NCBI GenBank assembly: GCA_031363325.1
Contig: JANLUE010001505.1
Location: forward strand, 1 to 37,994
Direction of reading: 5' to 3'
DNA: 37,994 nucleotides
Source of the DNA: Gemmataceae bacterium
GTDB taxonomy: Bacteria; Planctomycetota; Planctomycetia; Gemmatales; Gemmataceae
The notes below the pieces were generated by a model. That model made no database searches. It was not told where the DNA came from and worked only from the letters and a program-made list of their open reading frames with translations. Both the position numbers and the translations under genes were made by a program. Each line of letters opens with the position of its first letter. Positions within the stretch are counted from its first letter, which is position 1. Positions 7,731-37,655 of this stretch are shown here, in pieces.

Positions 7731-7929
7731 CCGTGTTTGGACGTGAGCGCCATTCGAGATGATGCTGCGACCCCTCCGGGGTCGTGCGGGTCTGGCGATT
7801 GCAAACCGGGGAATGGGGATAAAGCTACTTCTCTGATTTTCGGCTTTGGAATGTCACCTTCGATGATCTTTGGTGGATTCCCCCACAATCTATTCTGGGA
7901 AGAGACCCGGCAAAAGTGCGTTCGTGAAA

Positions 7930-7956
7930 TAGCCCTCTCGCTTCGCGAGAGGGCTA
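7930..7956 (-). terminator. hairpin between convergent genes (putative terminator)
   Basis: tagccctctcgc-ttc-gcgagagggcta forms a perfect 12-bp stem. On the minus strand it lies 13 nt after the stop of the 1730-aa gene and is followed by UUUCACG, a weak U-tract. Confidence 0.5.
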
Positions 7957-7968
7957 CGCGGCCAACTG

Positions 7969-10900: not shown

Positions 10901-13161
10901 AACCAGGGGGCGTTGTCGAGGCCCCGGTCGAATGGGGCCCACGTGGCGCCGCCATCGAGGGTGCGGACAATGCGTTGGCCCGCCTCGCGGGCGTAGACGA
11001 TTCGATCGTCGAAGCGATCGACGACCGGTTCGTACATGCCGGAGACGAAGCTCGGGGCCGCTCCTCCGGTCCAGGTCTGTCCCCCGTCCGTCGAGAGATA
11101 GGTGAACGAAGCCGGGAAGGCGTTGCCGTTCGTTATGTAAACTTTGTTCGCATCGGTGGTCGACGTGCCGACGCCAGAGCCATTGAACTTGGTGGGCAAA
11201 CCGTTCTCGCCGGACCCGGCGAAAGTCCAGGTGACGCCGTTGTCCGCGCTGCGCAGGACGCCGCCGACTTGCGGAACCTGATTCGATTGATCGGTGAGAG
11301 TTGCAATCAAAACATCGCTGTTGGCGAGGCGCTCGACATCATTGATGATCGTCGAGTAGGGGTTGGGGGCCTGAACGTAGGCCACGGTCCAGTTGAGGCC
11401 GCCGTCCGTCGTGCGCCAGATGGAGGCCTTGTACCAGAGATCGGAGGTGGCGCCGTTCGGGCCGTTCTGGCCGACCGCGATGATCAGACTCGGGTCCGTC
11501 GGGCTGAAGGCGAGTGCCCGCACGTCGGAGTCGAGGGAACCCGGAATCAGATCGGGCCCGATCGCGGTCCAGGTTCCATTCGAGGCGCGGCGGTACAGGC
11601 CTTCACGACCGGCCGAATTGGAGACACTGGCGGCGACATAGGCCGTCCCGTTCGGCGAATACTTGGCCAGCATGAACTTCGAGCCGCCGATCGACTCCCG
11701 GTTCCAGGTCGCGCCGCCGTTCGTCGAACGCATCACCCCGCCGCTATTGAGCCCGGAGTAGGTCAGCAGCATTTCGGACGGGTTCATTGGGTTGACCGCG
11801 ACCGATGTGGTCGCGAACTCGCTGATGCCGGCCGTGGACGAAGCGAACGTCGCCCCACCGTCCGTGCTCGCGAGCACGCCAAACTGGCCCGTCGACGCGA
11901 GGACCTTGCTCCCGACGAAGCGGACTTCGTTGACGAGCGCGCCGGCCGTGCCAGCGACATGGAACGCCCAGGTCGCTCCGCCATCGGTCGAACGGTAGAC
12001 GCCGTCCCGTTCCGTGCCGGCCACGAGGATCGACGGGTTGGCCGGGTCGATGGCGATCGAGCGCGCGAAGCCTTCCGGCCACGAGTTCGAGAGCGAAGTC
12101 CAGGATTGGCCAAAATCGGTGGAGCGACGAACACCGAACGAGTTGCCGAAGAACGGCGTGCCGCCAGCCACGTACAGATCGCCGCCCGAGAACTTGACAT
12201 CGAACACCGGCCCGCCCGGCAGGTCGCCCGTGCTGTTCTGCCAGCTCGCGCCCCCGTTCGTCGTCGTGAACACGCCGAACGGCCCAAACCCAACGCCATA
12301 GGCGATGGCGATTTGTTGCGGGTTCGCCGGGTTGAACGCGATCCGGCTCGGTGCCATGTTGGTCGACCCGCCGGGCGTGGCGTTCGTCCAGGTCGCCCCG
12401 CCGTCCGTGGACTTCCAGATGGTCTTCGGCTGTTGACCGAACCCGGACTCGAGCCCGACGAACAGAATGTTCGGGTCGGTCGGATGTGTGCCGATCGCCA
12501 ACACGAGTTGATAGTTTTCGTTGGCGATGTCGGACTTCGTCCAGGTCGCGCCGTCGTCGGTGCTTTTGAACAGCCCGGAGAAGGTGCCTGCGAAAGCGAC
12601 TCCGTTGACCGCGTAGACCACCGCGTGGACTTCATTGTCCTTGAAGAACGAGATTTCGTTCCAGGTCGTGCCGCCATCGGTCGAGCGGTACAGCCCGCCG
12701 TGACCGGTCGTCGTTTCCGAATCGACGGCCGCGAGGACGATGTTCGAGTTGCCCGGCGCCACGGCCGTCGCGACGACATCGCCGCCGAATGGGCCAATCG
12801 TCTTCCACGCGGACGAGGCCGCGTTGGTGGGAGAAACCGGCCCGGAGCGCGGCGACGTGTGGACCCAGCCCGCGTCCAGTGCTTGCACGACCGCGTACGT
12901 CCCGGCCGCCAACCCGGTGAAGGAGTAACTTCCGTCGGCTCCGGACGTGAGGCTCGATTCACCGGCGTCGAACTGGCGATTGCCGTTCGTATCCAGGTAC
13001 ACGGTCCGACCCGCGAGGGCCGGATCGCCAGGATCGCGAACGCCGTTTGCATTGAGGTCCTGCCAGACGGTCCCTTGAAGAGTGGCCGGTGCGAGACGGC
13101 ATTCGAGGGTGTCCAGGTGCAAACGACGGTTGCGCGACGCGGAAACGCGAGAGTGAAACAT
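7969..13161 (-). CDS. giant multidomain exoprotein: SdrD-B/Cna-B-like domains, BNR/Asp-box beta-propeller region, matrixin-type zinc metalloprotease, two Calx-beta domains, two CBM-like beta-sandwich domains
   Basis: 1730-aa ORF. It has many S-x-D-G-G-x-T-W Asp-boxes and repeated 'DLNANG...GxY' SdrD-B-like units. The zinc motif HEIGHSIGVAH sits at 9694..9726. Two tandem Calx-beta-like units match (TVTIPAGQASATFPVTAVDD / TVTIPAGKSSVTFRVSAINDT). Two paralogous C-terminal modules match (GTYEVTVTFG...DGQLTARFKD / GTYSVTVTMGD...DGQLTVRIAD). Confidence 0.85.
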   Translation of the reverse strand: MFHSRVSASRNRRLHLDTLECRLAPATLQGTVWQDLNANGVRDPGDPALAGRTVYLDTNGNRQFDAGESSLTSGADGSYSFTGLAAGTYAVVQALDAGWVHTSPRSGPVSPTNAASSAWKTIGPFGGDVVATAVAPGNSNIVLAAVDSETTTGHGGLYRSTDGGTTWNEISFFKDNEVHAVVYAVNGVAFAGTFSGLFKSTDDGATWTKSDIANENYQLVLAIGTHPTDPNILFVGLESGFGQQPKTIWKSTDGGATWTNATPGGSTNMAPSRIAFNPANPQQIAIAYGVGFGPFGVFTTTNGGASWQNSTGDLPGGPVFDVKFSGGDLYVAGGTPFFGNSFGVRRSTDFGQSWTSLSNSWPEGFARSIAIDPANPSILVAGTERDGVYRSTDGGATWAFHVAGTAGALVNEVRFVGSKVLASTGQFGVLASTDGGATFASSTAGISEFATTSVAVNPMNPSEMLLTYSGLNSGGVMRSTNGGATWNRESIGGSKFMLAKYSPNGTAYVAASVSNSAGREGLYRRASNGTWTAIGPDLIPGSLDSDVRALAFSPTDPSLIIAVGQNGPNGATSDLWYKASIWRTTDGGLNWTVAYVQAPNPYSTIINDVERLANSDVLIATLTDQSNQVPQVGGVLRSADNGVTWTFAGSGENGLPTKFNGSGVGTSTTDANKVYITNGNAFPASFTYLSTDGGQTWTGGAAPSFVSGMYEPVVDRFDDRIVYAREAGQRIVRTLDGGATWAPFDRGLDNAPWFYGQFALSYTMAPTPRLVVGTLAGIYSTELYSQTAAANSVTVQINDVRGNLDFGSRPLPGEISGSIIEDAIGDGQTLSGFPREDQVAYLDLNTNALLDSGEPAYRTNGFGTYRFTGLNPGTYSVRLLTRVDTLQTYPANNAAYTINLAADGNSSGNDLGFQFKPAVFQGTKYNDLNGNGTQDVGEPGLPGWTMFLDLNANGSPDTQEPQATTDVDGHFTLKARDPGPYVVSERPAPYWRTTSPTLGNSVYSGATGFEPSYGSWADRDPSTPNVTDLWYDFRDWNGYSNSISPEQQALVRTALDGWEQATGGKIRFTRNTTAPTADIITIGTGDLAALGLSSLPNGVLGAASFGSGGPSNMSSGVVWMDFAETWDLTIGNGQQSAYDYFSVALHEIGHSIGVAHTTGVPYTLPAVMSPNLFGEYTNLSVLDIDEVRKLYGANDTRPGFYLSQGVRGVVRDNLNFGDQSTGTPPYADLYLDFGVYFSTQPAGYSLVEYTQDYNVYTRTGWTSGADRYGWYSGFNDPLLEDYIDTADSTFAADLPTGTYEVTVTFGAQAGLTFDQMQVSFEGTPVDTVDAIGSTVTRTYVVSILDGQLTARFKDLGGATNKVAINAMTIKKVADRLTLSIAPSTFSETAGSNAATGTVTRTGDLSLPVTVNLSSNDTSEATVPTTVTIPAGQASATFPVTAVDDTIADLTQTVTISVSAVNYTSASTNVSVTDNEEFLTLSINPTTFSEAAGTNAATGTVTRSGSTVSALVVTLASSDTTEARVPATVTIPAGKSSVTFRVSAINDTILDGPQSVTITASAAGFFPNSAGVTVTDDERRTFTSAKFDFGTANSPVVSGFTRVHAGTIHNNFDGFGWSAGTISSVDRGSPANSVNRDFNATADGTFSVNVPNGTYSVTVTMGDHSIRRDRMQLYLEGSRRENNLNTSAGQFHKQTYSVRVSDGQLTVRIADNGGQDPLAVINALEFNRTGN

Positions 13162-15663: not shown

Positions 15664-17112
15664 ATGAGTTCGGAAACACCTCACACCGGATGGTTGGTCC
15701 CTGTCACGATGGGTCGAATCGGATGGGCGGTTGTTATTCTCTTGATCACACTGGCGGGACTTTGGCCGGTGTTGTGGCGGAATGGATTCGGATCGGACGA
15801 GCTCGAACATTACACAGCGAAGTATACTTGGCAATCAAACCAGACCGCTCATCTCATGATGGGCTTTTGCTTCATGACTCTCTTTTGGTGGGGATGCGTT
15901 CGTCGGCGGCGGAAGCCCGACGCTTCTGTGACAATAGAAGCCAACCCGATCCGCAAGTTGGCCGGGTGGTTTCGAGCGCGGCCAGTCCTTTGGCCGTTTG
16001 CAGCTATTCTGGTGAAAGACTTCGTGTTCGACGTGCTCAAGGACCTGTTGGCGACGGCCTGCTCGCCGATTTGGCCGAACTGGTCGAGCCTTTATTTCGA
16101 CGCGATCACCGATGACCTCTTCTGGTTCACCGGCTTCGGCTTCGCGCTGTTCGTGATCGGATGGCGGGCGTCAGGTCGTGTGAATTGGAAATGTGCGCTC
16201 GGGCTGTTTGTCGGCTTCCTGCTCGGAGCTCTCGGCTGTGGCGGCTTCTGGACTGCCCAAAAAGACTCGTTCGATCGCTCCGGGCTGCCTCTCAATTACA
16301 AGCGTCTGACGCACGTCGCCGGCGAAGTGAGGTTGGTCGGCGACCGCGACACGGCGAAGTCCACAATGCGGCGAATCCAGACGGAGGCCCAGGCCGGGCG
16401 ACCCGTCCACATCGTGATTTTCGGCGGTGCCCCTGGTCCAAGGACAGAACTCGCGGTCGCCATCGGGTGCGAGTACGTGTTTCGCCTCGACGATTGGCGT
16501 TGGTCGGGGTCAACGACCGTCCTTCATTCATCGGCCGTGCATCTGCTCGAAGACCCAGGCCGGGTCTGGGCGGTTGATTCTCCAAGCCGATGTCTGGTGG
16601 TCATTGGATTGGATACGGCCACGGTCCCACCCATCGACGCCCTGGTCGAATCGGCCATCGCCGCCAAGAAGCCGGAGCTCGTGAGCGTCGGGATTCGCAA
16701 TCAACTCGATCTGGCCCGTTTCTTCGCGCTCAAGGGTCATCCGAAGGCCGAACTTTACAAGAAGGATGTACCGCTCGACGAAGACGCTCTCCGATTTCTT
16801 CAAACAACGTACATCCCCGATCCGGACCCCGAACGGTCGCTGCCCGATATCGAGGATCGCATCCTGCGTGTTCGATCGGCCGTTCAAACTCGATCGACGC
16901 CGTTCCGAACGCTTGGCGCGGCGGCGCGAGAAAAAGGGATCGCCACGGTCTGGTCCCTGGCGGAAACGCCGACCTGGCTCGGACATCATTGCACGCCGGC
17001 CGAGGAGGCCATCCATCGGGCCAACGACCGGGAGGCCTGGATCCATTCGCTTGCCTACCTGTTGGGGATCAAGCCCGACGGGTTTATTCGCCTGGAATTG
17101 GAGGCTCCATGA
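15664..17112 (+). CDS. hypothetical polytopic membrane protein with a soluble C-terminal domain
   Basis: 482-aa ORF. About 5 hydrophobic helices by eye in the first 210 aa. The C-terminal domain has a degenerate P-loop-like IFGGAPGPRTELAVAIG and the Walker-B-like CLVVIGLD. Its stop overlaps the tyrosinase start (ATGA). Confidence 0.6.
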   Translation: MSSETPHTGWLVPVTMGRIGWAVVILLITLAGLWPVLWRNGFGSDELEHYTAKYTWQSNQTAHLMMGFCFMTLFWWGCVRRRRKPDASVTIEANPIRKLAGWFRARPVLWPFAAILVKDFVFDVLKDLLATACSPIWPNWSSLYFDAITDDLFWFTGFGFALFVIGWRASGRVNWKCALGLFVGFLLGALGCGGFWTAQKDSFDRSGLPLNYKRLTHVAGEVRLVGDRDTAKSTMRRIQTEAQAGRPVHIVIFGGAPGPRTELAVAIGCEYVFRLDDWRWSGSTTVLHSSAVHLLEDPGRVWAVDSPSRCLVVIGLDTATVPPIDALVESAIAAKKPELVSVGIRNQLDLARFFALKGHPKAELYKKDVPLDEDALRFLQTTYIPDPDPERSLPDIEDRILRVRSAVQTRSTPFRTLGAAAREKGIATVWSLAETPTWLGHHCTPAEEAIHRANDREAWIHSLAYLLGIKPDGFIRLELEAP

Positions 17113-18509
17113 CCTTGAGTCGCCGCGAGCTCCTGGGGACCGGCGTGGCGTTCGCGCTCGGTGAACGATCGTTCGCCCAGGCGGCACCCCGCGTCCGCCG
17201 CGATATCGCGGGCCTCAAGGCAAACGCCCCGGACATCGAGGCGTTGGCGGCCGGCATCAAAGCCATGCGCGCGAAGCCGCCGAACGACCCGCTGAACTGG
17301 AAAAACTTTGCCGAGCGTCACGGCCGCCTCGATTCACGTGTGACGACTGACTGCCAACATGGTTCGTGGTTCTTTTTGCCGTGGCATCGGGCTTACGTGC
17401 ACCGATTCGAGCAAGCGATCGCCGAGCTTTCGGGACACAAGGCCTTCGCACTTCCGTTTTGGGCATGGGAACGCGACTTCGCGATGCCCAAATTGTTCGA
17501 CGCGGGTGGCGTGCCCGAATTCGACAATCCCACGCGGGCGGGCAAGCCCAACGCCGGCCGCAAGAACCCGAAGGCCTTTCCGCAGGCCATCGTAAAGACG
17601 AAGTTCAGCAAGCGGGCACTCGAACTGTTGCTGAACTCGCCGGACTTTGCGACGTTCGCCGGCGGCGATCCAGACGACAAAATCGTCGGAGCCTTTGCGG
17701 GGGCACTTGAGAACAATCAACATCGGTACATTCACGAATGGGTCGATGGCGACATGGGAGAGGCGGGCTGTCCGTTCGACCCGATCTTTTGGCTCCACCA
17801 TTCAAACGTGGACCGGCTCTGGGATGCGTGGGCCCGCATCAATCCAAAGCGGCACCCTGCCGCGAAAAGTTGGCTCGACAAGACCTTTCCAAGTGTGAGT
17901 CCCGACGCCACGAAGCCGCTCCGCGTACGCGACCTGCTCGGCGACCAACTTGGCTACATCTATGAAGGGACTCGGGCCGCAGGCGATATGAGCCCAGTTT
18001 CGGCGACTTCCAAGACCTCGATCGGCTTGCAGGCTCCGTCCGGAGCTTGGACGCGAATGACGGAAGGCGATCTGGCGGCCACTCCAAGGGCCGCCAAAAA
18101 CGCGGGTGCCCTGTTCGCATCGGCCCTCGACGAGCGAGGGACCAGTCGAGTCCGGCTTCGACTTCGAAAGCTCAATCCCAAGGCTGATCCTCGGGCGATT
18201 CTCGAAGTTTATCTCGCCATCGACGCCAAGCCGATCAAGCCGGATCCCGAAGGCCCGGCGTTTGCCGGCTCGGTTTCCGTCGCCGAGCGATGGATGTCGG
18301 CCGACGAACACGGCCATGGCCCCGGGGGCGTCGCACTCGACGTGACGCTACCCTTCCGCGAACTCACGCGACCGCTCAATGGCAAACTGCCACCCGACAT
18401 GACGGTTCGTTTCGTCCCGCGAACCGTGGGCGGCGAGTCGTGGCGCGGCGAGTGGAAAGACCTCGTCCCGACCGAAGTGACTTTTGACGTCGTCCAGCCG
18501 GGCGAGTAA
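17109..18509 (+). CDS. Tat-exported tyrosinase / polyphenol oxidase (type-3 copper) with C-terminal lid domain
   Basis: Twin-arginine signal MTLSRRELLGTGVAFAL. CuA motif HGSWFFLPWHRAYVHRFE. CuB motif HRYIHEW...DPIFWLHHSNVDRLW. About 150 aa of C-terminal extension. The ATG at 17109 is in frame within the longer ORF 16590..18509. Confidence 0.9.
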   Translation: MTLSRRELLGTGVAFALGERSFAQAAPRVRRDIAGLKANAPDIEALAAGIKAMRAKPPNDPLNWKNFAERHGRLDSRVTTDCQHGSWFFLPWHRAYVHRFEQAIAELSGHKAFALPFWAWERDFAMPKLFDAGGVPEFDNPTRAGKPNAGRKNPKAFPQAIVKTKFSKRALELLLNSPDFATFAGGDPDDKIVGAFAGALENNQHRYIHEWVDGDMGEAGCPFDPIFWLHHSNVDRLWDAWARINPKRHPAAKSWLDKTFPSVSPDATKPLRVRDLLGDQLGYIYEGTRAAGDMSPVSATSKTSIGLQAPSGAWTRMTEGDLAATPRAAKNAGALFASALDERGTSRVRLRLRKLNPKADPRAILEVYLAIDAKPIKPDPEGPAFAGSVSVAERWMSADEHGHGPGGVALDVTLPFRELTRPLNGKLPPDMTVRFVPRTVGGESWRGEWKDLVPTEVTFDVVQPGE

Positions 18510-27640: not shown

Positions 27641-30600
27641 TCACACCGATCGCTTCACGTCAAATACATCGCGATCAACGACATCGAGCCCATCGACCGA
27701 GATCAGGTCCACGCTGCCATCGCGAGAGATGACCTGGTCCGCGTCGGCCCCGCCGACCATCGTGTCGCGGCCCGTCCAGCCGATCAGGGTGTCGTTGCCC
27801 GATCCGCCATCGAGCGAATCGTTGCCGGCCCCGCCATGCAAGAAGTCCCCCTGGGCCCCGCCGATCAGGGTGTCGTTGCCATCGTCTCCGAAGAACAGGC
27901 CCTTCCAGAACGCGCCGGCCGTCGCGTCCATCTCGATCCGATCGTTGCCGCCCAGGCCGTAGACCGTGACGGTTTCGCCTTCGAGATAGTTGAAGCGAAT
28001 CTCCTGACCGTTCAGCGTGACAACCGCGACCGGGTCGCCGTTACCATCGACTTCGCGCTTCACGAGGATCACATCGTTGCCAGCGGTACCTTCGATGACG
28101 AAGCCGTCTTCATCCGCCCCGAGGTTGACGATGTCGCCGCCCGGGTTCGGAGCCGAATCGTTGCCCGCGTTGCCGAACAATCGATCGAGGCCGGCCCCGC
28201 CGATCAACGTGTCGTTGCCCGCGTTGCCGACCAGCGAGTCGTCGCCAAGACCGCCGAGCAGCGAGTCTGCGTTCGAGCCGCCCAGGATCGTGTCGTTGCC
28301 GGCCGCCCCATCAATCGTCGTTCGGCCCGAGAACGCCGTCGCGTCGATCGTCTGGCTGGCCGCGTCGCCCGTGATCAGGGCTTGCTCGAAATCGGAGATC
28401 GTGTCGGTCCCCTCGGAGATCATCGACGCGTCGGTCAACGTGATGGTCGTCGCGTTCGAGATCACGCGGATCGTATCGACCCCGTTGCCGCCATCGAGAA
28501 CATCGTCTCCCTTGGCCCCGGCGATTCGATCGTTCGCGTTGCCGCCTTGAACGGTCGCTTGACCCGAGAAATCGCCGAGGAAGACGTCGTTGTTGTTTCC
28601 GTTGACGAGCCGCAGGTTGAGTTTCTCCAACCCACCCAGGGCATCGACGACGGCCGCCCCGCCGTTGTCGGTGAAGACCGTGGCGACGTCGCTCATCGAG
28701 AACGTCATGCGGTTGTTCGACTGCAGGACTTCGTCGAAGGTGTCGATCCCGGAGCCGCCCTGAACGGTGTCTTTCCCCGTCCCGCCGGTCAGCACATCGT
28801 TGTCGCCGCCTCCGGAAACGTTGTCGTCTCCCGATCCGCCGATGACCGTATCGTCCCCGACTCCGCCACTGAGAACGTCGTTGGACCCTTGCCCATCGAG
28901 CCGATCGTTGCCGGCGTTTCCGGTCAGCGAATCGTCGCCGACTCCGCCCTGAATATCGTCTCCGGCCGACCCGCCGATCAGGTTGTCGTTTCCGTTCGCG
29001 CCGACGAGCGTGACCGGCCCATCGAAGTTGGCCGCGTTCATGGAGTTGTTGCCGACGCTCCCGACGAGTTGAGCGGCCTCGATGCTCTGCAAGGCATATT
29101 GATGGTTGCCCCCGATCCCATCGACGTTGATGAACAGGGCGGTGTTCGTGAGGCTGAAGTCCGCGTTCGCGCTTTCGGACAGGATGTCGTCCCCGGCCCC
29201 GCCATCGATCGAGTCATCTCCGAGATTGCCCACGATCGAATCGAGCCCCTGGCCCCCGAAAATCGAGTCGGCCTTCACGCCGCCGAACAACGAATCGTTC
29301 CCAAGGCCGCCGTTCAGAGTCACCGGCCCGGAAAAGGCCTGGGCGCTGATGCGGTTGTTGGCGTCGGTTCCATCGAGTTGAGCCCGATCGATCTGGGTGT
29401 GCGTGTCGCGTCCTTCGCCGTCGAAGATTGTGTTCGTGATCAACCCGTTCAAGGCGATCGTCGCGTCGAGTCGGTCGTTTCCGAGCCCGCCATCGATGCT
29501 ATCGTCTCCTTCGCCGCCGCGAATCGTATCGTCGCCGAGCCCGCCGAGCAGCGTGTCCTTGCCGTCGCGACCACTGATCGAATCGTCGCCGTTTTCGCCT
29601 TCGATGCGATCGGCCCCGCGACCGCCCGTCAGGAAATCGCCGCCCTTGCCGCCCTTGATGGTTGCGTTGCCATTGAACGTGAGGGCACTGATCTGGTTCA
29701 CGGCGTCGCTGCCCGTGAGCACGGCCCGTTCGATCGATGTGAAGGTAACCAGCTCGACGCCGGGGTTGCGTGTGAAGTTGACGTCGCTCAGGAACCCATC
29801 GTTGCTGATCGATGCGACCAGCACGTCCGAGCCCCCGCCGCCATTCAGCGTCGCCTTGCCCGTGAAGGCCGTCACATTGAAGCTATCGTTCCCGGTGCCG
29901 GCGTTGATCTCGATCTCCTCGACGGCCGTCAACGAATCGGTGCCAACGCCAACGAGTTGCGTGTTTGCCAGGACGAACGCAGTCGCTGTGTTTGATCCGT
30001 TCTCGAAGACCCGGTCCGTTCCTTGACCACCGTTGAACGTGTCGTTGCCCGAGGACCCGAACATTGTGTCCTTACCATCGTTTCCGGTGAACAGATCGTT
30101 TCCGGCCGCTCCGTTGAGAACATCGTCGTTTGAGCCGCCGACGAGGGTATCGTTGCCGAGCCCGCCGGAAAGCGTGACCTTGCCATCGAACGCGGCCGCG
30201 TTTAGGTTGTTGTTCCCGTTGCCGCCGGTCAAGTTGGCGAGTTCGACTCCGTTGACTTGATCCAGTCCAACGCCGGCCAGGGTCGTGTTCGTGAGCGTGA
30301 AGCTCACGTTGGCCGTCTCGGTGATCTGGTCGGTCCCGAGCCCGCCGATCAGCACATCGTTTCCGGTGGAGCCCGTCAGGGTATCGTCGTCTTGCCCGCC
30401 ATCGAGGAGGTCGTCGCCGAGTCGTCCATCGATGGAGTCGTTGCCGATCCCACCGACCAGCACGTCTTTGCCATTCGACCCGACGATCGTGTCGTTCCCG
30501 GAGCCTCCATCAATGTTGACGTTTTGCGAGAAGAAACTCGTGTTGAGTGCGGACGCGTTGATGGTATCCGCGCCACCATTTCCATTGACGATGAGTCCGA

Positions 30601-30811
30601 ACGTATCGGAGAGCGTGTGCCCTGTGTTGGCGTTATTGACCTGGATCGCGCCGTTGCTCAGCGAGCGCACGGTGATCAGGTCGTTGGCCGCGTCCCCGGT
30701 GACGGTCAGGATGCCGTTCGAGAACGAGACCGTGAACGCGGGCACGATGCGATCGCCGAGCGATTCGAGGTTCAGGCGGAACTTGCGATTCTTGCGCTTG
30801 AGCTGGCTCAT
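27641..30811 (-). CDS. large RTX-type calcium-binding repeat protein (hemolysin-type GGxGxD nonapeptides)
   Basis: 1056 aa from the ATG at 30811 (MSQLKRKNRKFRLNLESLGDRIVPA...). Dozens of GGxGNDxLxG-type repeats run throughout. Confidence 0.85.
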   Translation of the reverse strand: MSQLKRKNRKFRLNLESLGDRIVPAFTVSFSNGILTVTGDAANDLITVRSLSNGAIQVNNANTGHTLSDTFGLIVNGNGGADTINASALNTSFFSQNVNIDGGSGNDTIVGSNGKDVLVGGIGNDSIDGRLGDDLLDGGQDDDTLTGSTGNDVLIGGLGTDQITETANVSFTLTNTTLAGVGLDQVNGVELANLTGGNGNNNLNAAAFDGKVTLSGGLGNDTLVGGSNDDVLNGAAGNDLFTGNDGKDTMFGSSGNDTFNGGQGTDRVFENGSNTATAFVLANTQLVGVGTDSLTAVEEIEINAGTGNDSFNVTAFTGKATLNGGGGSDVLVASISNDGFLSDVNFTRNPGVELVTFTSIERAVLTGSDAVNQISALTFNGNATIKGGKGGDFLTGGRGADRIEGENGDDSISGRDGKDTLLGGLGDDTIRGGEGDDSIDGGLGNDRLDATIALNGLITNTIFDGEGRDTHTQIDRAQLDGTDANNRISAQAFSGPVTLNGGLGNDSLFGGVKADSIFGGQGLDSIVGNLGDDSIDGGAGDDILSESANADFSLTNTALFINVDGIGGNHQYALQSIEAAQLVGSVGNNSMNAANFDGPVTLVGANGNDNLIGGSAGDDIQGGVGDDSLTGNAGNDRLDGQGSNDVLSGGVGDDTVIGGSGDDNVSGGGDNDVLTGGTGKDTVQGGSGIDTFDEVLQSNNRMTFSMSDVATVFTDNGGAAVVDALGGLEKLNLRLVNGNNNDVFLGDFSGQATVQGGNANDRIAGAKGDDVLDGGNGVDTIRVISNATTITLTDASMISEGTDTISDFEQALITGDAASQTIDATAFSGRTTIDGAAGNDTILGGSNADSLLGGLGDDSLVGNAGNDTLIGGAGLDRLFGNAGNDSAPNPGGDIVNLGADEDGFVIEGTAGNDVILVKREVDGNGDPVAVVTLNGQEIRFNYLEGETVTVYGLGGNDRIEMDATAGAFWKGLFFGDDGNDTLIGGAQGDFLHGGAGNDSLDGGSGNDTLIGWTGRDTMVGGADADQVISRDGSVDLISVDGLDVVDRDVFDVKRSV

Positions 30812-31080
30812 GACGTTGACTCCGAGACGATGGATGATGGCGGTCCGCGAAGGAATGAGCCCGTAACCCGAGCGTGCGAACGGAATTCGCCCAGGGGAGC
30901 TGGCCGGAACCGTGTTCGCCGGCCGCGATGATTGCGTTGTGATTGGCGTCTCCGACGCCGCCGAGACTTGCCGTGTCCCTACCAACTACCTGGCCGGCCC
31001 GCGGAGAAGTGTGACCGGAATCGATCGGAGGCGAGCGAATCGTTGTCGGTCAATGAGTAACCAGTACTGAGAAATCACTC

Positions 31081-31190: not shown

Positions 31191-31260
31191 ACTGAGTACT
31201 GAGTACTGAGTACTGAGTACTGAGTACTGAGTACTGAGTACTCAATACTCAGTACTCAAT
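31191..31260. repeat. heptanucleotide microsatellite (ACTGAGT)x7 followed by ACTCAAT-ACTCAGT-ACTCAAT
   Basis: Counted directly: seven perfect tandem ACTGAGT units at 31191..31239. Three units of the reverse-complement type follow at 31240..31260. The last one overlaps the kinase stop codon (31256..31258). Confidence 0.95.
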
Positions 31261-34006
31261 CGTCCTTGACGCGTCGCGTCGACTGGGTCAGTTGTTTGAA
31301 TTCGTCCGTCGCAATTATTTCGGCGAAGACCGCGTCGTTGCGGAGACGCGACCAGTCTCGCAGGCCGCGATTGGACGCCACACCCAGGGCGATCAACGCT
31401 TGTCGGTGATGGATACGAACGAAGGCTTGCTCGGCCGGCGTATTCCCAAATCGGGCCGCCACACGTAGGGCGAATCGAGCCTGGCGTATGGCCAGATCCA
31501 CGTCGGGCGCGCGAAAGGAATTGAGATACGTCGCGAGATCGGAAGCTTCACCAATCGACTTCCGCCGCAGGAGCAAGTCGCCCAGGTCGATTTGCCAGGC
31601 CACGATCGCCTGGGCGTGGCGTGAGTTCTTCGGTTCGAGCCGATAGACCGCCTCGATCTCGACCTTGGCGTCGCGCATGGCCACGACCGCGTCGTCCAGT
31701 CGCTTCGGGTTCTTCGAGAGATAGACGCCCAGTCGATGGGCGATTTCGCCCGCCCGATACCGGGCGGCCAGGCCGGCGGGGTAGCGCTTCAGGTAGTCGC
31801 GCATGATCCGCAGGGCGGCCCGATAGTTCGACTCCGCATCGGGATCGCCGACGCGTTCTTGCGTTCGCGCCAGCACGGCCATCACATTACTTTCGACGTT
31901 CAGATACTTCGGGTTCACGTTCAGGCGTTGATGAATGTCCGCGATGCGCTCGACGAGGGGCCGCATCATCGTCAACGATTCCGGGTATTGACGTGACTGA
32001 TAGAGCAAACGTGCTCGCTCCGCGACAATGGAAATGGCCGCCCACTGATACATTTCATTGTGCGGGAATTCGTTGGCCAGTTCCTCGACGATCGGTTGGG
32101 CGTCGTCGAGCGATTCGCAGCGAAAGACCGGCAGCCGATTCGACTCCAACGCGTACACCCCGAGGATCGCCTCACACAATCGAAAGCGAGCGGCCGGCGA
32201 TGGGTTCTTGGCCCGACCTGCGCTCCGAAGTTCCTGGAACGCTTGCTCGTACACGAGGTCGGCCTCCGCACCGCGATCCTGTCGAACGAGTGAGATCGCC
32301 CGAATCGCGAGCGTCGACCCATAGCCGCTTCGATACTCCGCGTCGTCCGGCGCTTCGACGAGCAACTGTCGGAAGAGCGCCTCGGCCTTGTCCAAACTCG
32401 CGTTCGCCGCCGCGAAGTCCATAAACCCGAGCGACGTATCCGCGTCGTCCGAATACGCCACCGCCAGCAAATAGCGAATGTCCCGTTCGTCGCGAAGCTC
32501 GGCACGCAGTTCGTTCAACGCTTCGATGGTGTCGCGAACATGGACGCGACGAAGTTGAACGCCTTCCGAAACCTCGGTCGAAAGTTGATGGAAGACTTGC
32601 CGGCGACGATCGAAGGTTTGCAGTAGATGGCCGAAGTTTCCATCGGCCCGATCCTTCGCCTGCCGGGCCTGGTCCGCTTCCCGGTCGGCCCGTTCTTGCT
32701 CGGCGCGGGCGTGGTCCAGGGCCTTGACGAGTTTGTCGTTCGCCGTCTCGACCTGGGAGTTCTTGAAGAACAGGACGCACGTCGTGCCGGCGAGAGCGAG
32801 AATCAATCCGACGATCGCGGTCGTGACGATTTGCCGATGGCGCTTGGCCCATTTCTTGGCGTGCTGCCAGGCGGACGGGCGCTTCGCGAGAATGGGCCGA
32901 TTGTCCAGGAATCGCCGCAAATCGTCGGCCAGGTCCCGCGCGGTTCGATAGCGCTCGTCCGGGTCCTTGGCCATCGCCTTGCGGACGATCACGTCCAATT
33001 CTTCCGGCACGTTGCGATCGACGAGGCGAACGGAAGGCGGTTCGCGCTCGGAGATTTGCCGCAGCAATTGCTCGCGGGTCTCGCCCGGATACGCCGGCCC
33101 GAGCGTCAGCATTTCGTAGAGCGTCACGCCGAGCGAATAGACATCGCAACGATGATCGACCGGCCCCGGCCGAAGCGTCGCCTGCTCGGGGCTCATGTAC
33201 CGGAGCGTGCCGACCACGTCACCGGTCATCGTTAGGCGAACATCGCTCCGCACGTGGGCGAGTCCGAAGTCCGTAACCCAGACCTGGCCGTCCGGGTCGA
33301 TGATCAAGTTCGCCGGCTTGATGTCGCGATGGATGACGCCGTTGGCGTGCGCGTACTCGAGCGCCTCGGCCGCCTGGACGCCGCAGCGCGCGACCCAGGG
33401 GTAGTAATCCGCCTTGCGGCCCGAGCGAACCGTCGAAAGCAACCCCTGGGGAGGCGTCGTGTCGCCTTCGATCGGCGCGGGCTTCGTCGTCCGCAACTCC
33501 GCGATCACCTCGGCGACCGTATGGCCATCGATGAACTGCATCGCGTAGAAATGCACGCCGCGATCGGTGCCGATGCCATAGACCGGGACGATGTTCGTGT
33601 GATGCAGTTGCCCGGCGGCCTGAGCTTCCGTCTTGAACCTTTGCAATTGTCGTTGATCGAGCGCGGCCGCGAAGGGGAGAACCTTCAACGCGACGCGTCG
33701 ACTCAGGCTGATCTGTTCCGCCTCGTAGACGACGCCCATCCCGCCGCGACCGACCTGACGAACGATGCGAAAGTCGCCGAGTTGACCGGGCGCGCCGTCT
33801 TCGGTCGAACTGGGCAACGCGTCCTGATCCGGGGCCCGCATCGCGGCCAGGGTGGGAAACATCTGGCGAATGAAGTTCGCGATCCGGGGATACCGCTGGG
33901 TGTATTCCTCGATCGTCGGCGCGTCGCCGCGCGCGAGGCGATCGAGGAACTCGTCCGCGACCTGGGCCATCAACGATTCAACCGAAACGTCTTCCGCGGT
34001 GGTCAC
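31256..34006 (-). CDS. membrane Ser/Thr protein kinase with C-terminal TPR-like sensor region
   Basis: 916 aa with a GTG start. Kinase motifs VALKVL, HRDIKPANLI, DFGLA and YMSPEQ. One TM helix (IVTTAIVGLILALAGTTCVLFF). Long helical-repeat C-terminus. Confidence 0.9.
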   Translation of the reverse strand: MTTAEDVSVESLMAQVADEFLDRLARGDAPTIEEYTQRYPRIANFIRQMFPTLAAMRAPDQDALPSSTEDGAPGQLGDFRIVRQVGRGGMGVVYEAEQISLSRRVALKVLPFAAALDQRQLQRFKTEAQAAGQLHHTNIVPVYGIGTDRGVHFYAMQFIDGHTVAEVIAELRTTKPAPIEGDTTPPQGLLSTVRSGRKADYYPWVARCGVQAAEALEYAHANGVIHRDIKPANLIIDPDGQVWVTDFGLAHVRSDVRLTMTGDVVGTLRYMSPEQATLRPGPVDHRCDVYSLGVTLYEMLTLGPAYPGETREQLLRQISEREPPSVRLVDRNVPEELDVIVRKAMAKDPDERYRTARDLADDLRRFLDNRPILAKRPSAWQHAKKWAKRHRQIVTTAIVGLILALAGTTCVLFFKNSQVETANDKLVKALDHARAEQERADREADQARQAKDRADGNFGHLLQTFDRRRQVFHQLSTEVSEGVQLRRVHVRDTIEALNELRAELRDERDIRYLLAVAYSDDADTSLGFMDFAAANASLDKAEALFRQLLVEAPDDAEYRSGYGSTLAIRAISLVRQDRGAEADLVYEQAFQELRSAGRAKNPSPAARFRLCEAILGVYALESNRLPVFRCESLDDAQPIVEELANEFPHNEMYQWAAISIVAERARLLYQSRQYPESLTMMRPLVERIADIHQRLNVNPKYLNVESNVMAVLARTQERVGDPDAESNYRAALRIMRDYLKRYPAGLAARYRAGEIAHRLGVYLSKNPKRLDDAVVAMRDAKVEIEAVYRLEPKNSRHAQAIVAWQIDLGDLLLRRKSIGEASDLATYLNSFRAPDVDLAIRQARFALRVAARFGNTPAEQAFVRIHHRQALIALGVASNRGLRDWSRLRNDAVFAEIIATDEFKQLTQSTRRVKDD

Positions 34007-34629
34007 AGTTCACCTTCGGTTTCGGAAAACAACTGCCGATGGAGGCGAACGATGGCCCGGCTGTGGCGCTTGCGGGCGGCCGCCGGGTCGATGCCGAGCA
34101 GATAGGCCGCCTCTTCGTGCGAGAGCCCTTCGAAGACCCGCAGGACGATCACTTCGCGGTCGGCCGGGTCCAATCGATCAACCGCGTCGCGAACCCGGCC
34201 GGCGAGTTCCTCGCGGCTGACTTGCTGGCTCGGCGTCGAGTTCGTACCCGGCAACTGCAAGGCGAGTTGGAGGAACGAATCGTCCGGGATGCGGACTTCC
34301 CGTCCGGTGGCCCGTCGGGCCGTTGTCAGATGATAGCGACGCAGCTTGCTCATCCGCTCGGCAGCCAGTTGCCGGAGCCAGAGCCGAAACGGTACGTCCG
34401 GGTTCTCGATATACGCCTGGAACCGCCGCAGCGCCTCGAGTTGAGTCTCCTGAACGATGTCCGAGGCATCGACCCGTTGCCGGAGGCGATCGTCCATGCG
34501 GAACTGGATCATCCGAACCAGGTACGGCCGATAATGTTCGAACAAGCGGTTGAACGCGACGGCGTCGCCCGTCCTGGCTCGAACGAGCAGGCTCGCGGTC
34601 TCGGCGGTGTCCGGCGCAGGCTCCGGCAT
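34003..34629 (-). CDS. ECF-type RNA polymerase sigma-70 factor
   Basis: 208 aa. Region 2 (FNRLFEHYRPYLVRMI...DIVQETQLEALR) and region 4 (REVIVLRVFEGLSHEEAAYLLGIDPAAARKRHSRAIVRL). The stop overlaps the kinase GTG start (GTGA). Confidence 0.9.
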   Translation of the reverse strand: MPEPAPDTAETASLLVRARTGDAVAFNRLFEHYRPYLVRMIQFRMDDRLRQRVDASDIVQETQLEALRRFQAYIENPDVPFRLWLRQLAAERMSKLRRYHLTTARRATGREVRIPDDSFLQLALQLPGTNSTPSQQVSREELAGRVRDAVDRLDPADREVIVLRVFEGLSHEEAAYLLGIDPAAARKRHSRAIVRLHRQLFSETEGEL

Positions 34630-34732: not shown

Positions 34733-34761
34733 GTTAGCGCGGCTGGTGGGAAATGGTTGCG

Positions 34762-34800
34762 TTTGCACTCCCACGGCTACTAGGGTCGTGGGAATGCAAA
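34762..34800 (-). terminator. hairpin 5 nt downstream of the selenoprotein-candidate stop
   Basis: tttgcactcccacg-N11-cgtgggaatgcaaa forms a 14-bp stem with one mismatch. No clear U-tract follows, so terminator function is uncertain. Confidence 0.35.
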
Positions 34801-34805
34801 CTCGC

Positions 34806-37136
34806 TCAGGGCACGAACACGTTGTCCCGCTCGAGCGGCAACTGGAACGCGTCGGCCACGCGAGTCATGTAGTGGCAGCGACACGCCCACCAGATCACAT
34901 CAATGGCCCGGTCGGGGCCGAAGTGACGCTTCAACTCCTCAATGTCCTTCGATGTGATGTTCCACGGCTCCCGGGACATCTTGCGAGCGTAGGCGAAGGC
35001 GACGCGCTCGGCCGGCGGGAAGCCGGTCCAGTCGCCGTCGGCCAACTTCTGCGTTCGTTCCCGGATGGCTTTGTCGTCGAGGCCCGCGACCGCGAGCAGC
35101 ATTTCGGTATGCCCCATTCAGTAAAAGCACTGAATTTCTCGGGTGATCACCCAAAACAAGAGTTCCTCGAAGACGCGGTCTTGTTTGGAGTCCTCGGCGA
35201 ACCAACGCATCCCGCCGGTCCACGGGGCGGCCAGGATCGGCGAATGGCCCAGGCATACGAGGCTCCACTTGATCCGCAACGGCTTGGCGTCCTTGGACAT
35301 GTACTTTTTCACGTCGTCGAACGTCGGGACCGAGACGCGCGGCTCACGGGCCTTCTGGGCGTCCATGAATTTTTGCAGGCCCGCGAAGTCGATGCTCCGC
35401 CAGTCCGGGTCCGTCACGCGTTCGAGTGTCGCGTCGGCGATCGCTTCGATCTTTGGTCGGGGCGGCGGGTTGCCGCCCTCCCACGGCTTCTGAAAACGTA
35501 CCCCGGTGGGCGGACCGTCGGGCAGGTCGGCGACGCCGAGCGAATGGAGCATCCGATCCTGGAAGTTGCCGAACGCCACCAATTGCACGAGCGCGACGAG
35601 CTTCGGGTCGCCGAGGTCCGTGCGGACGGCGGCCATTTGTTCGTCGGTCACCTTGTAGGCTGCGAGCGTGAGTTGCCGCGCCAACTTGAGAATACGCCGA
35701 GTTTCTTCGGTGAGTGCGGCCTGATCGCCGAGCATCGATTTCACTTCCGCATCCGTCCCGCCGGCCAACTTCAGGTCGGCGAGCGCGACTTCCTTCGAGG
35801 CCGGACAGCGGAGCACGTCGGCCACGGTCCAGCGAGCCATCGCCCGGAGCTTCGGATCGAGCGGGCTCTTGGTGCGATGTAGGTCGTCGAGTTCGAGGTA
35901 GGTGGCCGTCGCCCGGGGCAGCGAACGCGCGGTGATCTTCGCCCAGGCCGGCATTGGCCCGCCCTGACCGGTCGTCGCGAGCGGCAACTTGGTCCAGGCC
36001 TCCGTCGAAGGCGGCATCGGGAATCGTTGGGCCATCGCGCGTTCCTCGGCCAAGTACACGGCGATCTGCTGTTCCAGTTCGCCGGGCTTGAAGCCGAACG
36101 GGCCACGGCCGCCCTTGTACGCGACCTTGCCCGCCCGATCGATGAAATAGAGCCGATCCGGCATGCCGCTATACAGGTGGCCGACGTGGTCGTCGATTTT
36201 GTCGACGACCAGGGGGATCGTCATCTTGAGGGCGGCGCAACATTGCGACGCGACTTCGACGCGCTCCGCGTCCGTGGTCGGTTGATCGAACGTGACGCCC
36301 GCCTTGTCGTTCGAGGCGATGCGCCAGCCGCTCGTCGGGTGCGCTTCCCGCACGTAGACGTTGATGAATTGAACCTGATCGCCGTAGATCTGATGCAGAC
36401 GTTCGAGGCGCCCAAACTGGGCGCGATACGGGCCTCAGGTAAAGCTCCCGAAAATGAGCACCACCGGCTTCTTGTCCCGGCAGTCGCTCAAGGTGTAGGT
36501 TCGCTTGCCATCGAAGCTCGTCAGCGTGAAGTCCGGCGCTGCACTCTCGTGTTTCGGCCCTTCGGCACCGGAACCAAGTTCGCCCGTCATCAAGCCAATC
36601 AGAAGCGTGGCGGTCGATGGGCCGCCTCCACCAGGCGGCGGGCTCTTTGGGGGCGGTGGGAAAAGCAATTGACGCAGGTCGTCCGGCTCCATCGTGTCTT
36701 TGCAGCCGGTCGCCCGATCGAACAGGCCGGTCCATTCCGCTTTATTTAGTTTGCGGTCGGCGTTCTGGTCGCCGCGTCGAACGAGCGATCCCGCGATCGC
36801 CATCTGCTTCGAGTAGGTGCTACCGTCGGACCAGTCGAAATCGTCGGCCGTGATGAAGCCATCGCCATCCCGGTCAAGAGCTTTGAACGCCATCGCCGGC
36901 CCACCAAACTCGTCGGCGGAGACGCGGCCGTTCTTGTCGCGGTCGAACTGCTTCTGGAATCGAGCCCAGGAGTAGCGAACGTGGCTGTCCTTGAACCAGC
37001 CATCGCCCGGCCCCATCTGCGAGCCGGACAGGACGGCGTCGAGCATCTGCAAGAACTCGCCCCGCGGGCGAGTCGGCGGGTCGGCGAGGCCGATGGTCGG
37101 GAGGAATGCCATGAGTGCGAGCGGAAGTCGGGACAT
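34806..37136 (-). CDS. predicted secreted selenoprotein: signal peptide, EF-hands, deiodinase-like thioredoxin fold, tandem AhpD/CMD-like domains; two in-frame UGA codons read as Sec
   Basis: Three ORFs (36435..37172, 35118..36353, 34806..35117) are contiguous in one frame, separated only by TGA at 36435..37 and 35118..20. Conserved domains run straight across both TGAs: FGSFT-U-GPY...VYVREAHPTSGW, and ITREIQCFY-U-MGHTEMLL. The total is 776 aa from the ATG at 37136 (MSRLPLALMAFLPTIGLA). Confidence 0.7.
35082..35097 (-). promoter_or_regulatory. candidate SECIS hairpin for UGA-2
   Basis: The mRNA reads GCUCGC-GGUC-GCGGGC: a 6-bp stem including one G-U pair, with loop GGUC. The loop G residues are 27-28 nt after the UGA. 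Confidence 0.45.
36408..36424 (-). promoter_or_regulatory. candidate SECIS hairpin for UGA-1
   Basis: The mRNA reads GCGCCCA-GUU-UGGGCGC: a 7-bp perfect stem in a 17-nt element that begins at the 11th nt after the UGA. Confidence 0.55.
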
Positions 37137-37168
37137 ACGCAAAATTCCGGATCGGGCGCTCGGTCGAA

Positions 37169-37390
37169 TCAAGCTTTCGTCGATTCCGTCGTTCGGTTTC
37201 GCAGGTATTCTCGCAGCGCCGCATTGACCGCCGCCTCGTCCGCGAAGGCGGCAGCGACATCGTCCGCGAGACGAACCACACGAAGTCGCTCGCGATATCG
37301 ATCGAAGTATTTGCCGCGGACAACGCCTCGCAACGAACGAAAGTCGTAGTCCGACCGCAACTCGTCACTCGATTCAGGGGAAGTTGCCAT
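37169..37390 (-). CDS. brnA: BrnA-like antitoxin
   Basis: 73 aa from the ATG at 37390 (MATSPESSDELRSDYDFRSLRGVVRGKY...). The '(D/E)YDF...RG' pattern is typical of antitoxins paired with BrnT. It overlaps brnT by 17 nt. Confidence 0.65.
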   Translation of the reverse strand: MATSPESSDELRSDYDFRSLRGVVRGKYFDRYRERLRVVRLADDVAAAFADEAAVNAALREYLRNRTTESTKA

Positions 37391-37655
37391 CTTCGTAGTC
37401 CTTTCGCTCACCACGATTTGCTTCTCGCGCACTGATGATTCGAATTCGACCATCACGGTCGGTGTGAGATACGATGATCACACGGCCGCCATTTGACAAC
37501 CCCACTGTAATGTACCGATCTTCGTCGTCCGAGTGATCGGGATCGAAACCCGTCGCGGCCAATGGATCGCCGAAGACCGTCATCGCATCGCCAAAGGTGA
37601 CATCGTGTTTCCGGGCATTCGCATCCGCCTTCTCATCGTCCCATTCGAACTCCAT
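37374..37655 (-). CDS. brnT: BrnT-family (DUF497) toxin
   Basis: 93 aa. MEFEWDDEKADANARKHDVTFGDAMTVFGDP...RIISAREANRGERKDYE is the classic BrnT signature. Confidence 0.85.
   Translation of the reverse strand: MEFEWDDEKADANARKHDVTFGDAMTVFGDPLAATGFDPDHSDDEDRYITVGLSNGGRVIIVSHTDRDGRIRIISAREANRGERKDYEDGNFP

Follow-up and report, generated by a model that had tools for sequence, protein, structure and literature searches.

A planctomycete gene that reads as a two-selenocysteine fusion of a deiodinase-like domain and a double AhpD-like module

The deiodinase-like, AhpD-like, CMD-like and 'hypothetical protein 1' CxxU selenoprotein families were described in 2005 (PMC1088965, Zhang, Fomenko & Gladyshev), and a 2026 review (PMC13188914) and a 2022 review each list these families with one selenocysteine (Sec). 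The catalogued bacterial deiodinase-like family carries its one Sec in a UxxC motif. Fusions with several Sec residues are also known, an example being the arsenite methyltransferase/AhpD-domain protein with three Sec. Here we analyzed a gene on a 37,994-nucleotide stretch of DNA from a Gemmataceae bacterium (GenBank assembly GCA_031363325.1, contig JANLUE010001505.1, positions 1 to 37,994), hereafter the window, that reads as a selenoprotein gene with two Sec codons, one in a deiodinase-like domain and the other in a fused double AhpD-like module. We put the probability of this two-Sec reading of 37136..34806 (minus strand) at about 0.9. In the selenoprotein catalogues we found neither a deiodinase/AhpD double-Sec fusion, nor any selenoproteins with EF-hands or a Sestrin-like module, nor any reference to Planctomycetes. 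The window gene is a new domain combination of known selenoprotein kinds, and its decoding mechanism is not surprising.

With the bacterial deiodinase-like selenoproteins (PF00837) the predicted product shares the thioredoxin fold, a catalytic UGA-encoded Sec, the existence of Cys homologues and a bacterial-type SECIS (Sec insertion sequence) element directly downstream of the UGA. It differs from them in its T-U-G-P-[YF] motif with no nearby Cys, in its signal peptide-like N-terminus and EF-hands (the NF038285 architecture) and in the fused double AhpD-like module with a second Sec; its family is planctomycete and largely from soil and freshwater, not from marine plankton. An all-helical AhpD-type domain, a C-x-x-U motif in the C-F-Y-U context after which NF041238 is named and the common occurrence of Sec/Cys pairs are shared with the AhpD-like, CMD-like and NF041238 CxxU selenoproteins, whereas in the window the motif continues M-G-H and not T, the domain belongs to a tandem of about 410 residues fused to the deiodinase-like domain, and the scores fall far below the cutoffs. 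Like the multi-Sec fusion selenoproteins, the product would have at least two Sec, spread over different domains that include an AhpD domain with CxxU, and one SECIS per Sec; it differs from them in its deiodinase-like partner domain and its planctomycete lineage.

An earlier note on this DNA had described a minus-strand open reading frame (ORF) at 37172..36435 that ends ...KKPVVLIFGSFT-TGA (36437..36435), with the same frame running on without another stop as GPYRAQFGRLERLHQIYGDQVQFINVYVREAHPTSGWRI... into the ORF 35118..36353. Direct reading of the strand gave the same coordinates, and translation confirmed the continuation. The selenoprotein proposed there was supported by our analysis, and the proposal was incomplete, not wrong: a second Sec codon, a second SECIS and the fused double AhpD-like module had been overlooked. 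The ORF 36353..35118 ends at a UGA that we read as recoded and not at a true stop, and is followed in frame by ATG GGG CAT (...REIQCFY-TGA-MGHTEM...). Frame translation of 37136..34806 gave one frame of 776 codons plus a stop, with in-frame UGA at codons 234 (UGA#1) and 673 (UGA#2), 439 codons apart; these are the only two internal UGAs, and the frame is otherwise open. From the hydrophobic N-termini of homologues we infer ATG 37136 to be the start; an upstream TTG at 37172 is a possible alternative. The elements on which the reading rests are as follows.

34806..37136, minus strand: putative complete recoded gene, from ATG 37136; start MSRLPLALMAFLPTIGLADPP..., signal-peptide-like; homologues of 820-840 amino acids cover 97%
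36435..36437, minus strand: UGA#1, codon 234, predicted Sec at the catalytic position (FGSFT-U-GPY); Cys in 55 and TGA in 19 orthologues, and Dio3 alignment
36408..36424, minus strand: putative SECIS#1, GCGCCCA-GUU-UGGGCGC, stem of 7 bp and a UGA-to-loop spacing of 17 nt; by bacterial SECIS (bSECIS) criteria and covariation
35118..35120, minus strand: UGA#2, codon 673, predicted Sec of the CxxU motif; 43 TGA loci (plus L008 and L073) against 42 with TGC or TGT
35082..35097, minus strand: putative SECIS#2, GCUCGC-GGUC-GCGGGC, stem of 6 bp and a UGA-to-loop spacing of 26 nt; by bSECIS criteria and conservation
34806..34808, minus strand: terminal UGA, genuine stop; fails the bSECIS criteria

We compared the gene with its relatives at both sites. 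A protein search returned 561 homologues, and a scan of GTDB species representatives gave 376 relatives, from which 80 loci were kept; the site counts refer to 84 loci, consisting of these 80, three contigs from metagenomes or metagenome-assembled genomes (MAGs) and the window. Nearly all of the 376 relatives are labelled Planctomycetota, with a few bins labelled otherwise. At site 1 (codon 234) the codon is TGA in 19 loci, TGC in 48 and TGT in 7, the Sec forms reading FGSFT-U-GP[YF]R[AS]QFG (QSG in L006) and the Cys forms FGNFTCGPFR. The earlier note had proposed a search for Cys opposite the UGA in orthologues, and the outcome agreed with its expectation, 55 loci having FGNFTCGPF and 19 having FGSFT-UGA-GP[YF]R. 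At site 2 (codon 673) there are 43 loci with TGA (and two found later), 39 with TGC and 3 with TGT, and CFY-U-[MA]GH in the Sec forms stands against mostly CNYCMGH in the Cys forms. Two of the metagenome or MAG contigs (L001 and L002) have TGA at both sites; in the third (L003), site 1 is TGC and only site 2 is TGA. The loci with both modules in the same order comprise 37 Cys/Cys, 11 Sec/Sec, 11 Cys/Sec and no Sec/Cys forms. Zavarzinella formosa DSM 19928 (L016) is a Cys/Cys form, and Tundrisphaera lichenicola P12 (L079) pairs a site-1 Cys with a site-2 TGA, its modules being adjacent genes; the closest relative lies in a Gemmataceae MAG (DATFWZ01, SMAG_U9504).

The database entries show the same two positions. 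Both sites are Cys in full-length homologues of 820-840 amino acids (Gemmata, Zavarzinella and Pirellula; 'deiodinase family protein'), and entries of about 700 amino acids have Cys at site 1 and end ...CFY. The closest relatives in the protein search, at 65-68% identity, are 431-amino-acid fragments that cover the stretch between the UGAs. Shorter entries start or finish exactly at the UGAs, and gene callers cut the Sec forms into two or three ORFs. Orthologues end in TGA, TAA or TAG at the position of the window gene's terminator or within about 15 codons of it. The planctomycete-specific gene was also present in MAGs (L006, L020, L046 and L056) whose labels include Alcaligenaceae, Byssovorax and Candidatus Kuenenia; at least the Alcaligenaceae and Byssovorax labels look like binning or classification errors.

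Scattered stops in close relatives had been named in the earlier note as a sign of pseudogene decay. Of the 59 same-order loci, 57 have no additional stop from one site to the other, and the UGA is conserved. One extra stop was seen in L032, and L017 (a Sec/Sec form from a long-read Gemmataceae MAG) has an out-of-frame stretch with three stops (3623-4952) between correctly framed parts, which could reflect paired indel assembly errors or early decay. Against five relatives, the ratio of nonsynonymous to synonymous substitution rates (dN/dS) ranged over 0.17-0.51 in the N-terminal segment and 0.21-0.45 in the middle one, and was lowest after UGA#2, where the tail gave 0.12-0.33. All three segments are under purifying selection, and therefore all are translated. 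As TGA also ends 10 of the 12 other confident genes of the window, the standard code applies there; we considered a reassignment of the code and rejected it, TGA being a normal stop in this DNA.

We evaluated the two hairpins against the published bSECIS constraints, which require a loop of 3-9 nt, a stem of 4-16 bp, a G in the first two loop positions, a distance of 16-37 nt from UGA to loop and a minimum free energy (MFE) of at most -7.5 kcal/mol (2026 review, PMC13188914). The hairpin at +11 to +27 after UGA#1 (36424..36408), for which the earlier note had given a perfect stem of 7 bp and the loop GUU, was found as stated and passes with -12.0 kcal/mol, a spacing of 17, a stem of 7 and loop GUU; the 66-nt fold after UGA#1 has a z-score of -1.8. 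The hairpin after UGA#2 (+21 to +36) passes with -8.7 kcal/mol, a spacing of 26, a stem of 6 and loop GGUC. By the same constraints there is no qualifying hairpin after the terminal UGA. The fdhF SECIS of E. coli probably has GGUC as its apical loop too; the published description gives a stem of 6-8 bp and a conserved loop G about 20 nt downstream of the UGA.

What decisively lifts the hairpins above chance is the comparative signal. Across 19 species, 96% of the cells of SECIS#1 are paired. Its pair 15-29 is GC in nine, AU in five, UA in three and CG in one, with no breaks, and pair 16-28 occurs as UA, GC, GU or UG. The covariation score was reached by none of 500 shuffles, slid registers all collapse, and RNAalifold independently gave the same helix. 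Some of the compensating changes alter the protein from Arg to His or Gln (L001, L002 and L004), so the RNA constraint overrides the protein at SECIS#1. Of 43 Sec-form species, 42 have exactly the same bases in SECIS#2, and the other one (L051) carries a C-G to G-C swap.

The Cys-form genes, which have neither hairpin, served as an internal control at both sites. Inside the hairpin, third-position entropy is 0.50 bits in Sec forms against 1.72 in Cys forms at site 1, and 0.11 against 1.34 bits at site 2; outside the hairpins the Sec and Cys values lie much nearer to each other, at 1.20 and 1.63 (site 1) and 1.18 and 1.24 (site 2). The hairpin MFE is -10.4 kcal/mol in Sec forms against -3.2 in Cys forms at site 1 and -9.6 against -3.2 kcal/mol at site 2. 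The hairpins also leave their mark on the protein itself: Sec forms read R[AS]QFG and LLAVAGL where Cys forms read R..[YF]P and LLEVAGL, respectively.

Two other hairpins of the window were observed on the minus strand. A strong 15-bp hairpin, GUUUGCAUUCCCACG...CGUGGGAGUGCAAAC (34761..34801), begins 5 nt past the terminal UGA, the 60-nt fold having an energy of about -26 kcal/mol; it has no U-tract after it and probably serves to terminate transcription or to stabilise the mRNA. A perfect 13-bp hairpin, GUAGCCCUCUCGC-GAA-GCGAGAGGGCUAU (7929..7957), lies just past the TGA of a gene for a 1730-amino-acid BNR/matrixin-domain protein (7969..13161). The latter passes the bSECIS criteria and looks like an intrinsic terminator, so the criteria are unspecific when used alone.

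The remaining features of the gene are its predicted domains, listed here from the N-terminus.

36735..36944, minus strand: predicted calcium-binding EF-hands, DRDKNGRVSADEF, DRDGDGFITADDF and a weaker third loop; Pfam EF-hand_1/5/6/7
36069..36545, minus strand: deiodinase-like domain (peroxiredoxin-type thioredoxin fold), residues 198-356; PF00837 E=5e-26; PDB 4TR3 and 9H48
35523..35915, minus strand: first AhpD/CMD-like domain, residues ~408-538; Pfam CMD 20.8 bits and TIGR01926 46 bits, each under its cutoff; PDB 2IJC, 2O4D and 6K40
34809..35339, minus strand: second AhpD-like domain, residues ~600-776, with the motif C670-F-Y-U673-M-G-H676; weak NF041238 match, 6OHI and Sestrin2-like fold

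The deiodinase assignment of the earlier note was confirmed. PF00837 (T4_deiodinase) scored 91.8 bits in the Pfam scan (E=5e-26, cutoff 27), and the NCBIfam model NF038285 (deiodinase_rel) scored 439.5 bits over residues 25-364 (cutoff 250), both above their family cutoffs. The NF038285 match includes the EF-hand region, which also matches the calcium-binding proteins 2M7N and 1JFJ in the PDB; by its sequence the N-terminus is probably a signal peptide, and the product is probably exported and may bind calcium. A family profile matched mouse Dio3 (4TR3, E=7e-29) and also Dio2 (9H48). In the alignment FGnftCGPf falls on FGSCTCPPF of 4TR3, in which the catalytic Sec position is Cys in the crystallised protein, and UGA#1 lies opposite that position, in agreement with the proposal that the stop codon falls at the redox residue. 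Conserved residues that align with deiodinase residues are Ser231, Thr233, Tyr261, Glu264, His266, Trp271 and Arg344; the roles of the proton-relay and substrate-site residues of deiodinases have been described (PMC11592359). The second relay His of the deiodinases is replaced by Pro286 and the candidate resolving Cys by Ile or Leu. Since the only invariant Cys/Sec positions among 58 sequences are 234, 670 and 673, the deiodinase-like domain has no resolving Cys of its own.

We extended the comparison to folds with an AlphaFold model of a Cys/Cys homologue (P0007), which is 49% identical to the window protein, with a predicted local distance difference test (pLDDT) value of 90 and a predicted template modelling (pTM) score of 0.62. 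The middle domain of the model superposes on Dio2 (9H48) with a template modelling (TM) score of 0.81 and a root-mean-square deviation (rmsd) of 3.0 Å, and on Dio3 (4TR3) with TM 0.77 and rmsd 2.3 Å. With vertebrate Dio1-3 the window protein shares 28-30% identity, the Sec position and the Ser/Thr/Tyr/Glu/His/Trp/Arg set of active-site residues (compared with 4TR3 and 9H48). It differs from them in having no vertebrate-type N-terminal membrane anchor, no second relay His and no candidate resolving Cys, and in carrying its SECIS in the coding region and not in the 3' untranslated region; thyroid hormones are not its expected substrate.

In the C-terminal part, C670, Y672, C673, M674, G675, H676 and E678 are invariant among the 58 sequences, and C670-F-Y-U673-M-G-H676 of the window forms a CxxC/CxxU motif followed by His. 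The motif region is helical in the P0007 model, with pLDDT above 90. The first AhpD/CMD-like domain has a single Cys (C444) and no intact CxxC/U motif. With the family profile, the second domain weakly matches the CMD-fold debrominase Bmp8 (PDB 6OHI, E=1e-3). The C-terminal ~425 columns of the P0007 model superpose on human Sestrin2 (5CUF, 5DJ4 and 5T0N) with TM 0.60 and E ~4e-6, at about 15% identity and an rmsd of 9-14 Å. Human Sestrin2 is itself a fused pair of AhpD-like domains, and the window protein likewise would have two AhpD-type halves in one chain. The window protein has no match to the Pfam Sestrin family (PA26), and to judge from the model the link is a resemblance of fold and architecture, not membership.

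Gemmata obscuriglobus (Gemmataceae) and Isosphaera pallida (Isosphaeraceae) are reported to carry selA, selB, selC and selD (PMC4807772, S8 Table), and the TGA forms occur in both of these families. We have high confidence that the source organism recodes the UGAs in a SelB-dependent manner. SelB with Sec-tRNA(Sec) would bind the hairpin after UGA#1 and after UGA#2 and insert Sec instead of allowing termination, and the third UGA, which lacks a hairpin, would end translation. The predicted product would consist of a signal peptide, EF-hands, a Sec-bearing deiodinase/peroxiredoxin-like fold and a Sestrin2-like AhpD pair with C-x-x-U-x-x-H in the second copy. The lone Sec of the deiodinase-like domain would attack an oxidant, either peroxide or a halogenated or other electrophilic substrate, and the AhpD-like module, with its CxxU centre, would then resolve the oxidised selenium. 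Mycobacterial AhpC and AhpD are a peroxiredoxin and its CxxC reductase. By inference the window protein is like this pair in joining a one-chalcogen peroxiredoxin-type fold to an AhpD-fold CxxC/U partner, in fused or adjacent genes, and its family differs in having selenium at one or both centres, a deiodinase-like partner, apparent export and EF-hands. By this analogy, a peroxidase-type relay between the two centres has, in our estimate, somewhat less than an even chance of being the chemistry. More tentative, and on balance unlikely in all its parts together, is the full picture of a secreted, Ca2+-binding and self-contained two-selenium relay, previously uncatalogued, whose deiodinase-type domain and Sestrin-like double-AhpD module are built into a single chain.

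Several observations weigh against the reading of the gene and its domains. Pfam scans of 30 ORFs from the 38-kb window gave no selA, selB or selD, a search for tRNA-Sec came back empty both for the window and for the 83 fetched loci, and those loci contained no Sec-insertion gene. Because 7.9% of the 977 UGA triplets in the window (62% G+C) also pass the bSECIS constraints, a hairpin alone is weak evidence. Neither hairpin had an Rfam match at gathering or permissive thresholds, the hits obtained (p27_CRE, Pseudomon-Rho and Pab19) being at chance level, and covariation in SECIS#2 is almost nil, resting on L051 alone, because the sequence barely varies. PF02627 (CMD) scored 20.8 against a cutoff of 23, TIGR01926 46.4 against 81.8, and NF041238 ('AhpD_rel_CFYUT (seleno)protein') 23.8 over residues 669-770 against 175; by these sequence scores the C-terminal domains are distant relatives of the three families and not members. 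The pTM of the P0007 model is only 0.62. Finally, that no Sec/Cys form occurs amounts in effect to a single event, since the site-1 Sec forms make up one clade; for the same reason we discounted, as evidence of coupling, the finding that Sec occurs at site 1 only together with Sec at site 2.

The same two-Sec protein might instead carry out reductive dehalogenation of an iodinated or brominated aromatic, with the CxxU module regenerating the Sec. We consider this chemistry unlikely, and less so than the other alternatives below. The conserved residues from Ser231 to Arg344, whose deiodinase counterparts have the roles cited above (PMC11592359), favor it, as does the vertebrate-like FGS.TU context of the Sec forms, which stands against FGN.TC in the Cys forms. 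The Sec-bearing AhpD-like domain also matches the debrominase Bmp8 (6OHI), yet at E=1e-3 the match is weak and no better than generic AhpD/CMD matches. The Bmp8 study reportedly described a thiol-based dehalogenation strategy common to Bmp8 and the deiodinases. Against it, the equivalents of Dio3 His219 and Cys239 (in our numbering) are Pro and Ile/Leu, and no halogenase or organohalide-related genes are nearby, the neighbours not being conserved. In addition, the 2005 discoverers of the bacterial deiodinase-like proteins expected a generic redox role for them (PMC1088965).

Readings without selenium are far less probable. That the UGAs are true stops, in a decaying pseudogene or in three small genes of 245, 411 and 103 codons with coincidental hairpins, agrees with how automatic callers annotate the relatives, with the roughly 8% of UGA triplets that have a bSECIS-like hairpin by chance, and with the internally frameshifted stretch in L017. 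It is nevertheless scarcely credible: a single conserved fold would be cut at its redox residue, where 55 and 42 orthologues have Cys at sites 1 and 2, respectively; 19 and 45 species have TGA at these codons in frames that are otherwise intact; the tail after UGA#2 keeps a dN/dS of 0.12-0.33; and the hairpin bases are frozen or covarying in the TGA forms only. The first in-frame start past UGA#1 is 27 codons downstream, and a product made separately from there would therefore miss that part of the domain. Slightly less remote, and still very improbable, is selenium-free read-through (near-cognate Cys or Trp, SelB-independent suppression) or a sequencing or assembly error that turned TGC or TGT into TGA, for which the failure to find Sec machinery within the 38-kb window speaks. 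The hairpins, at canonical spacing and with a G in the apical loop, match the published SECIS criteria, relatives in the same families have selABCD (PMC4807772), and general suppression is unlikely because TGA is the ordinary terminator of most genes in the window. Dozens of genomes, each assembled independently, keep the same two TGAs, which contradicts the pseudogene, split-gene and sequencing-error readings alike.

A neighbour-joining tree built from the deiodinase domain placed all site-1 Sec forms in one clade, which indicates a single origin of Sec at that site. The site-2 Sec forms fell into at least five clades with an identical SECIS common to all, and this suggests that Sec is ancestral at site 2 and has been replaced repeatedly by Cys. 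In at least 10 species the deiodinase and AhpD-like modules are separate and adjacent genes, in either order, and an evident signal-peptide-like N-terminus was present in at least 7 of 20 products of these genes. There are also long Cys-form fusions (P0001) that join the modules in the opposite order. Because the modules are separate and adjacent in these species, we regard the window gene as a fusion of a two-gene pair.

A paralogous AhpD-like family adjoins many of the related genes and has no copy in the window. It occurs as SR[AV]NNC[HY]Y-TGA-LGHQE[HR]KLAVAGL and as NNCQYC[LIM]GHQE. The TGA forms (L051:3473, L075:4205 and L080:1410), whose frames are open on both sides, have a hairpin at +21 to +36, the spacing of SECIS#2; in L051 and L075 it is identical to the SECIS#2 hairpin, GCUCGC-GGUC-GCGGGC, and in L080 it is the variant GCUCGC-AGUU-GCGGGC. 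Cys forms were found in L016, L018, L022, L023, L026, L027, L029, L032, L034, L077, L082 and L083.

The two-Sec reading leaves the knowledge of Sec decoding unchanged. It concerns a widespread planctomycete protein, with 376 relatives, that is mis-annotated wherever it uses selenium, since gene callers split or truncate the genes. The family offers a natural comparison of Sec and Cys at two redox centres, with a SECIS#1 that covaries and a SECIS#2 that is frozen across orders and also found in the paralogous family. The fusion or adjacency of the deiodinase-like and AhpD/Sestrin-like modules provides a testable hypothesis for the function of bacterial deiodinase homologues. If the two-selenium relay is true, it would give a tractable bacterial system with natural Sec/Sec, Cys/Sec and Cys/Cys variants in hundreds of species and a route to the role of deiodinase-like proteins before thyroid hormones, in peroxide reduction or dehalogenation, and it would reveal substrates reduced by AhpD/Sestrin-type modules.

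We also recorded the genes around the selenoprotein gene in the window. None of the ECF (extracytoplasmic function) sigma factor, Ser/Thr kinase, BrnT or RTX genes is conserved beside the relatives, and because the neighbours are not conserved they give no operon clue. A 639-amino-acid tyrosinase-domain protein (16590..18509, plus strand) and a 1114-amino-acid RTX (HemolysinCabind) repeat protein (27641..30985, minus strand) have no evident link to the selenoprotein gene. Directly upstream is a gene for a BrnT-type ribonuclease toxin (37374..37655, minus strand; Pfam E=2e-26). An ORF of 95 amino acids (37169..37456, minus strand), which could be a BrnA-like antitoxin, overlaps the BrnT gene, and its stop shares nucleotides with the TTG that could serve as an alternative start for the selenoprotein ORF. 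Directly downstream are a planctomycete-type ECF sigma factor (34003..34629, minus strand) and a 916-amino-acid Ser/Thr kinase with a long C-terminal extension (31256..34006, minus strand), and the 4-nt overlap of stop and start between these two genes suggests that they are translationally coupled.

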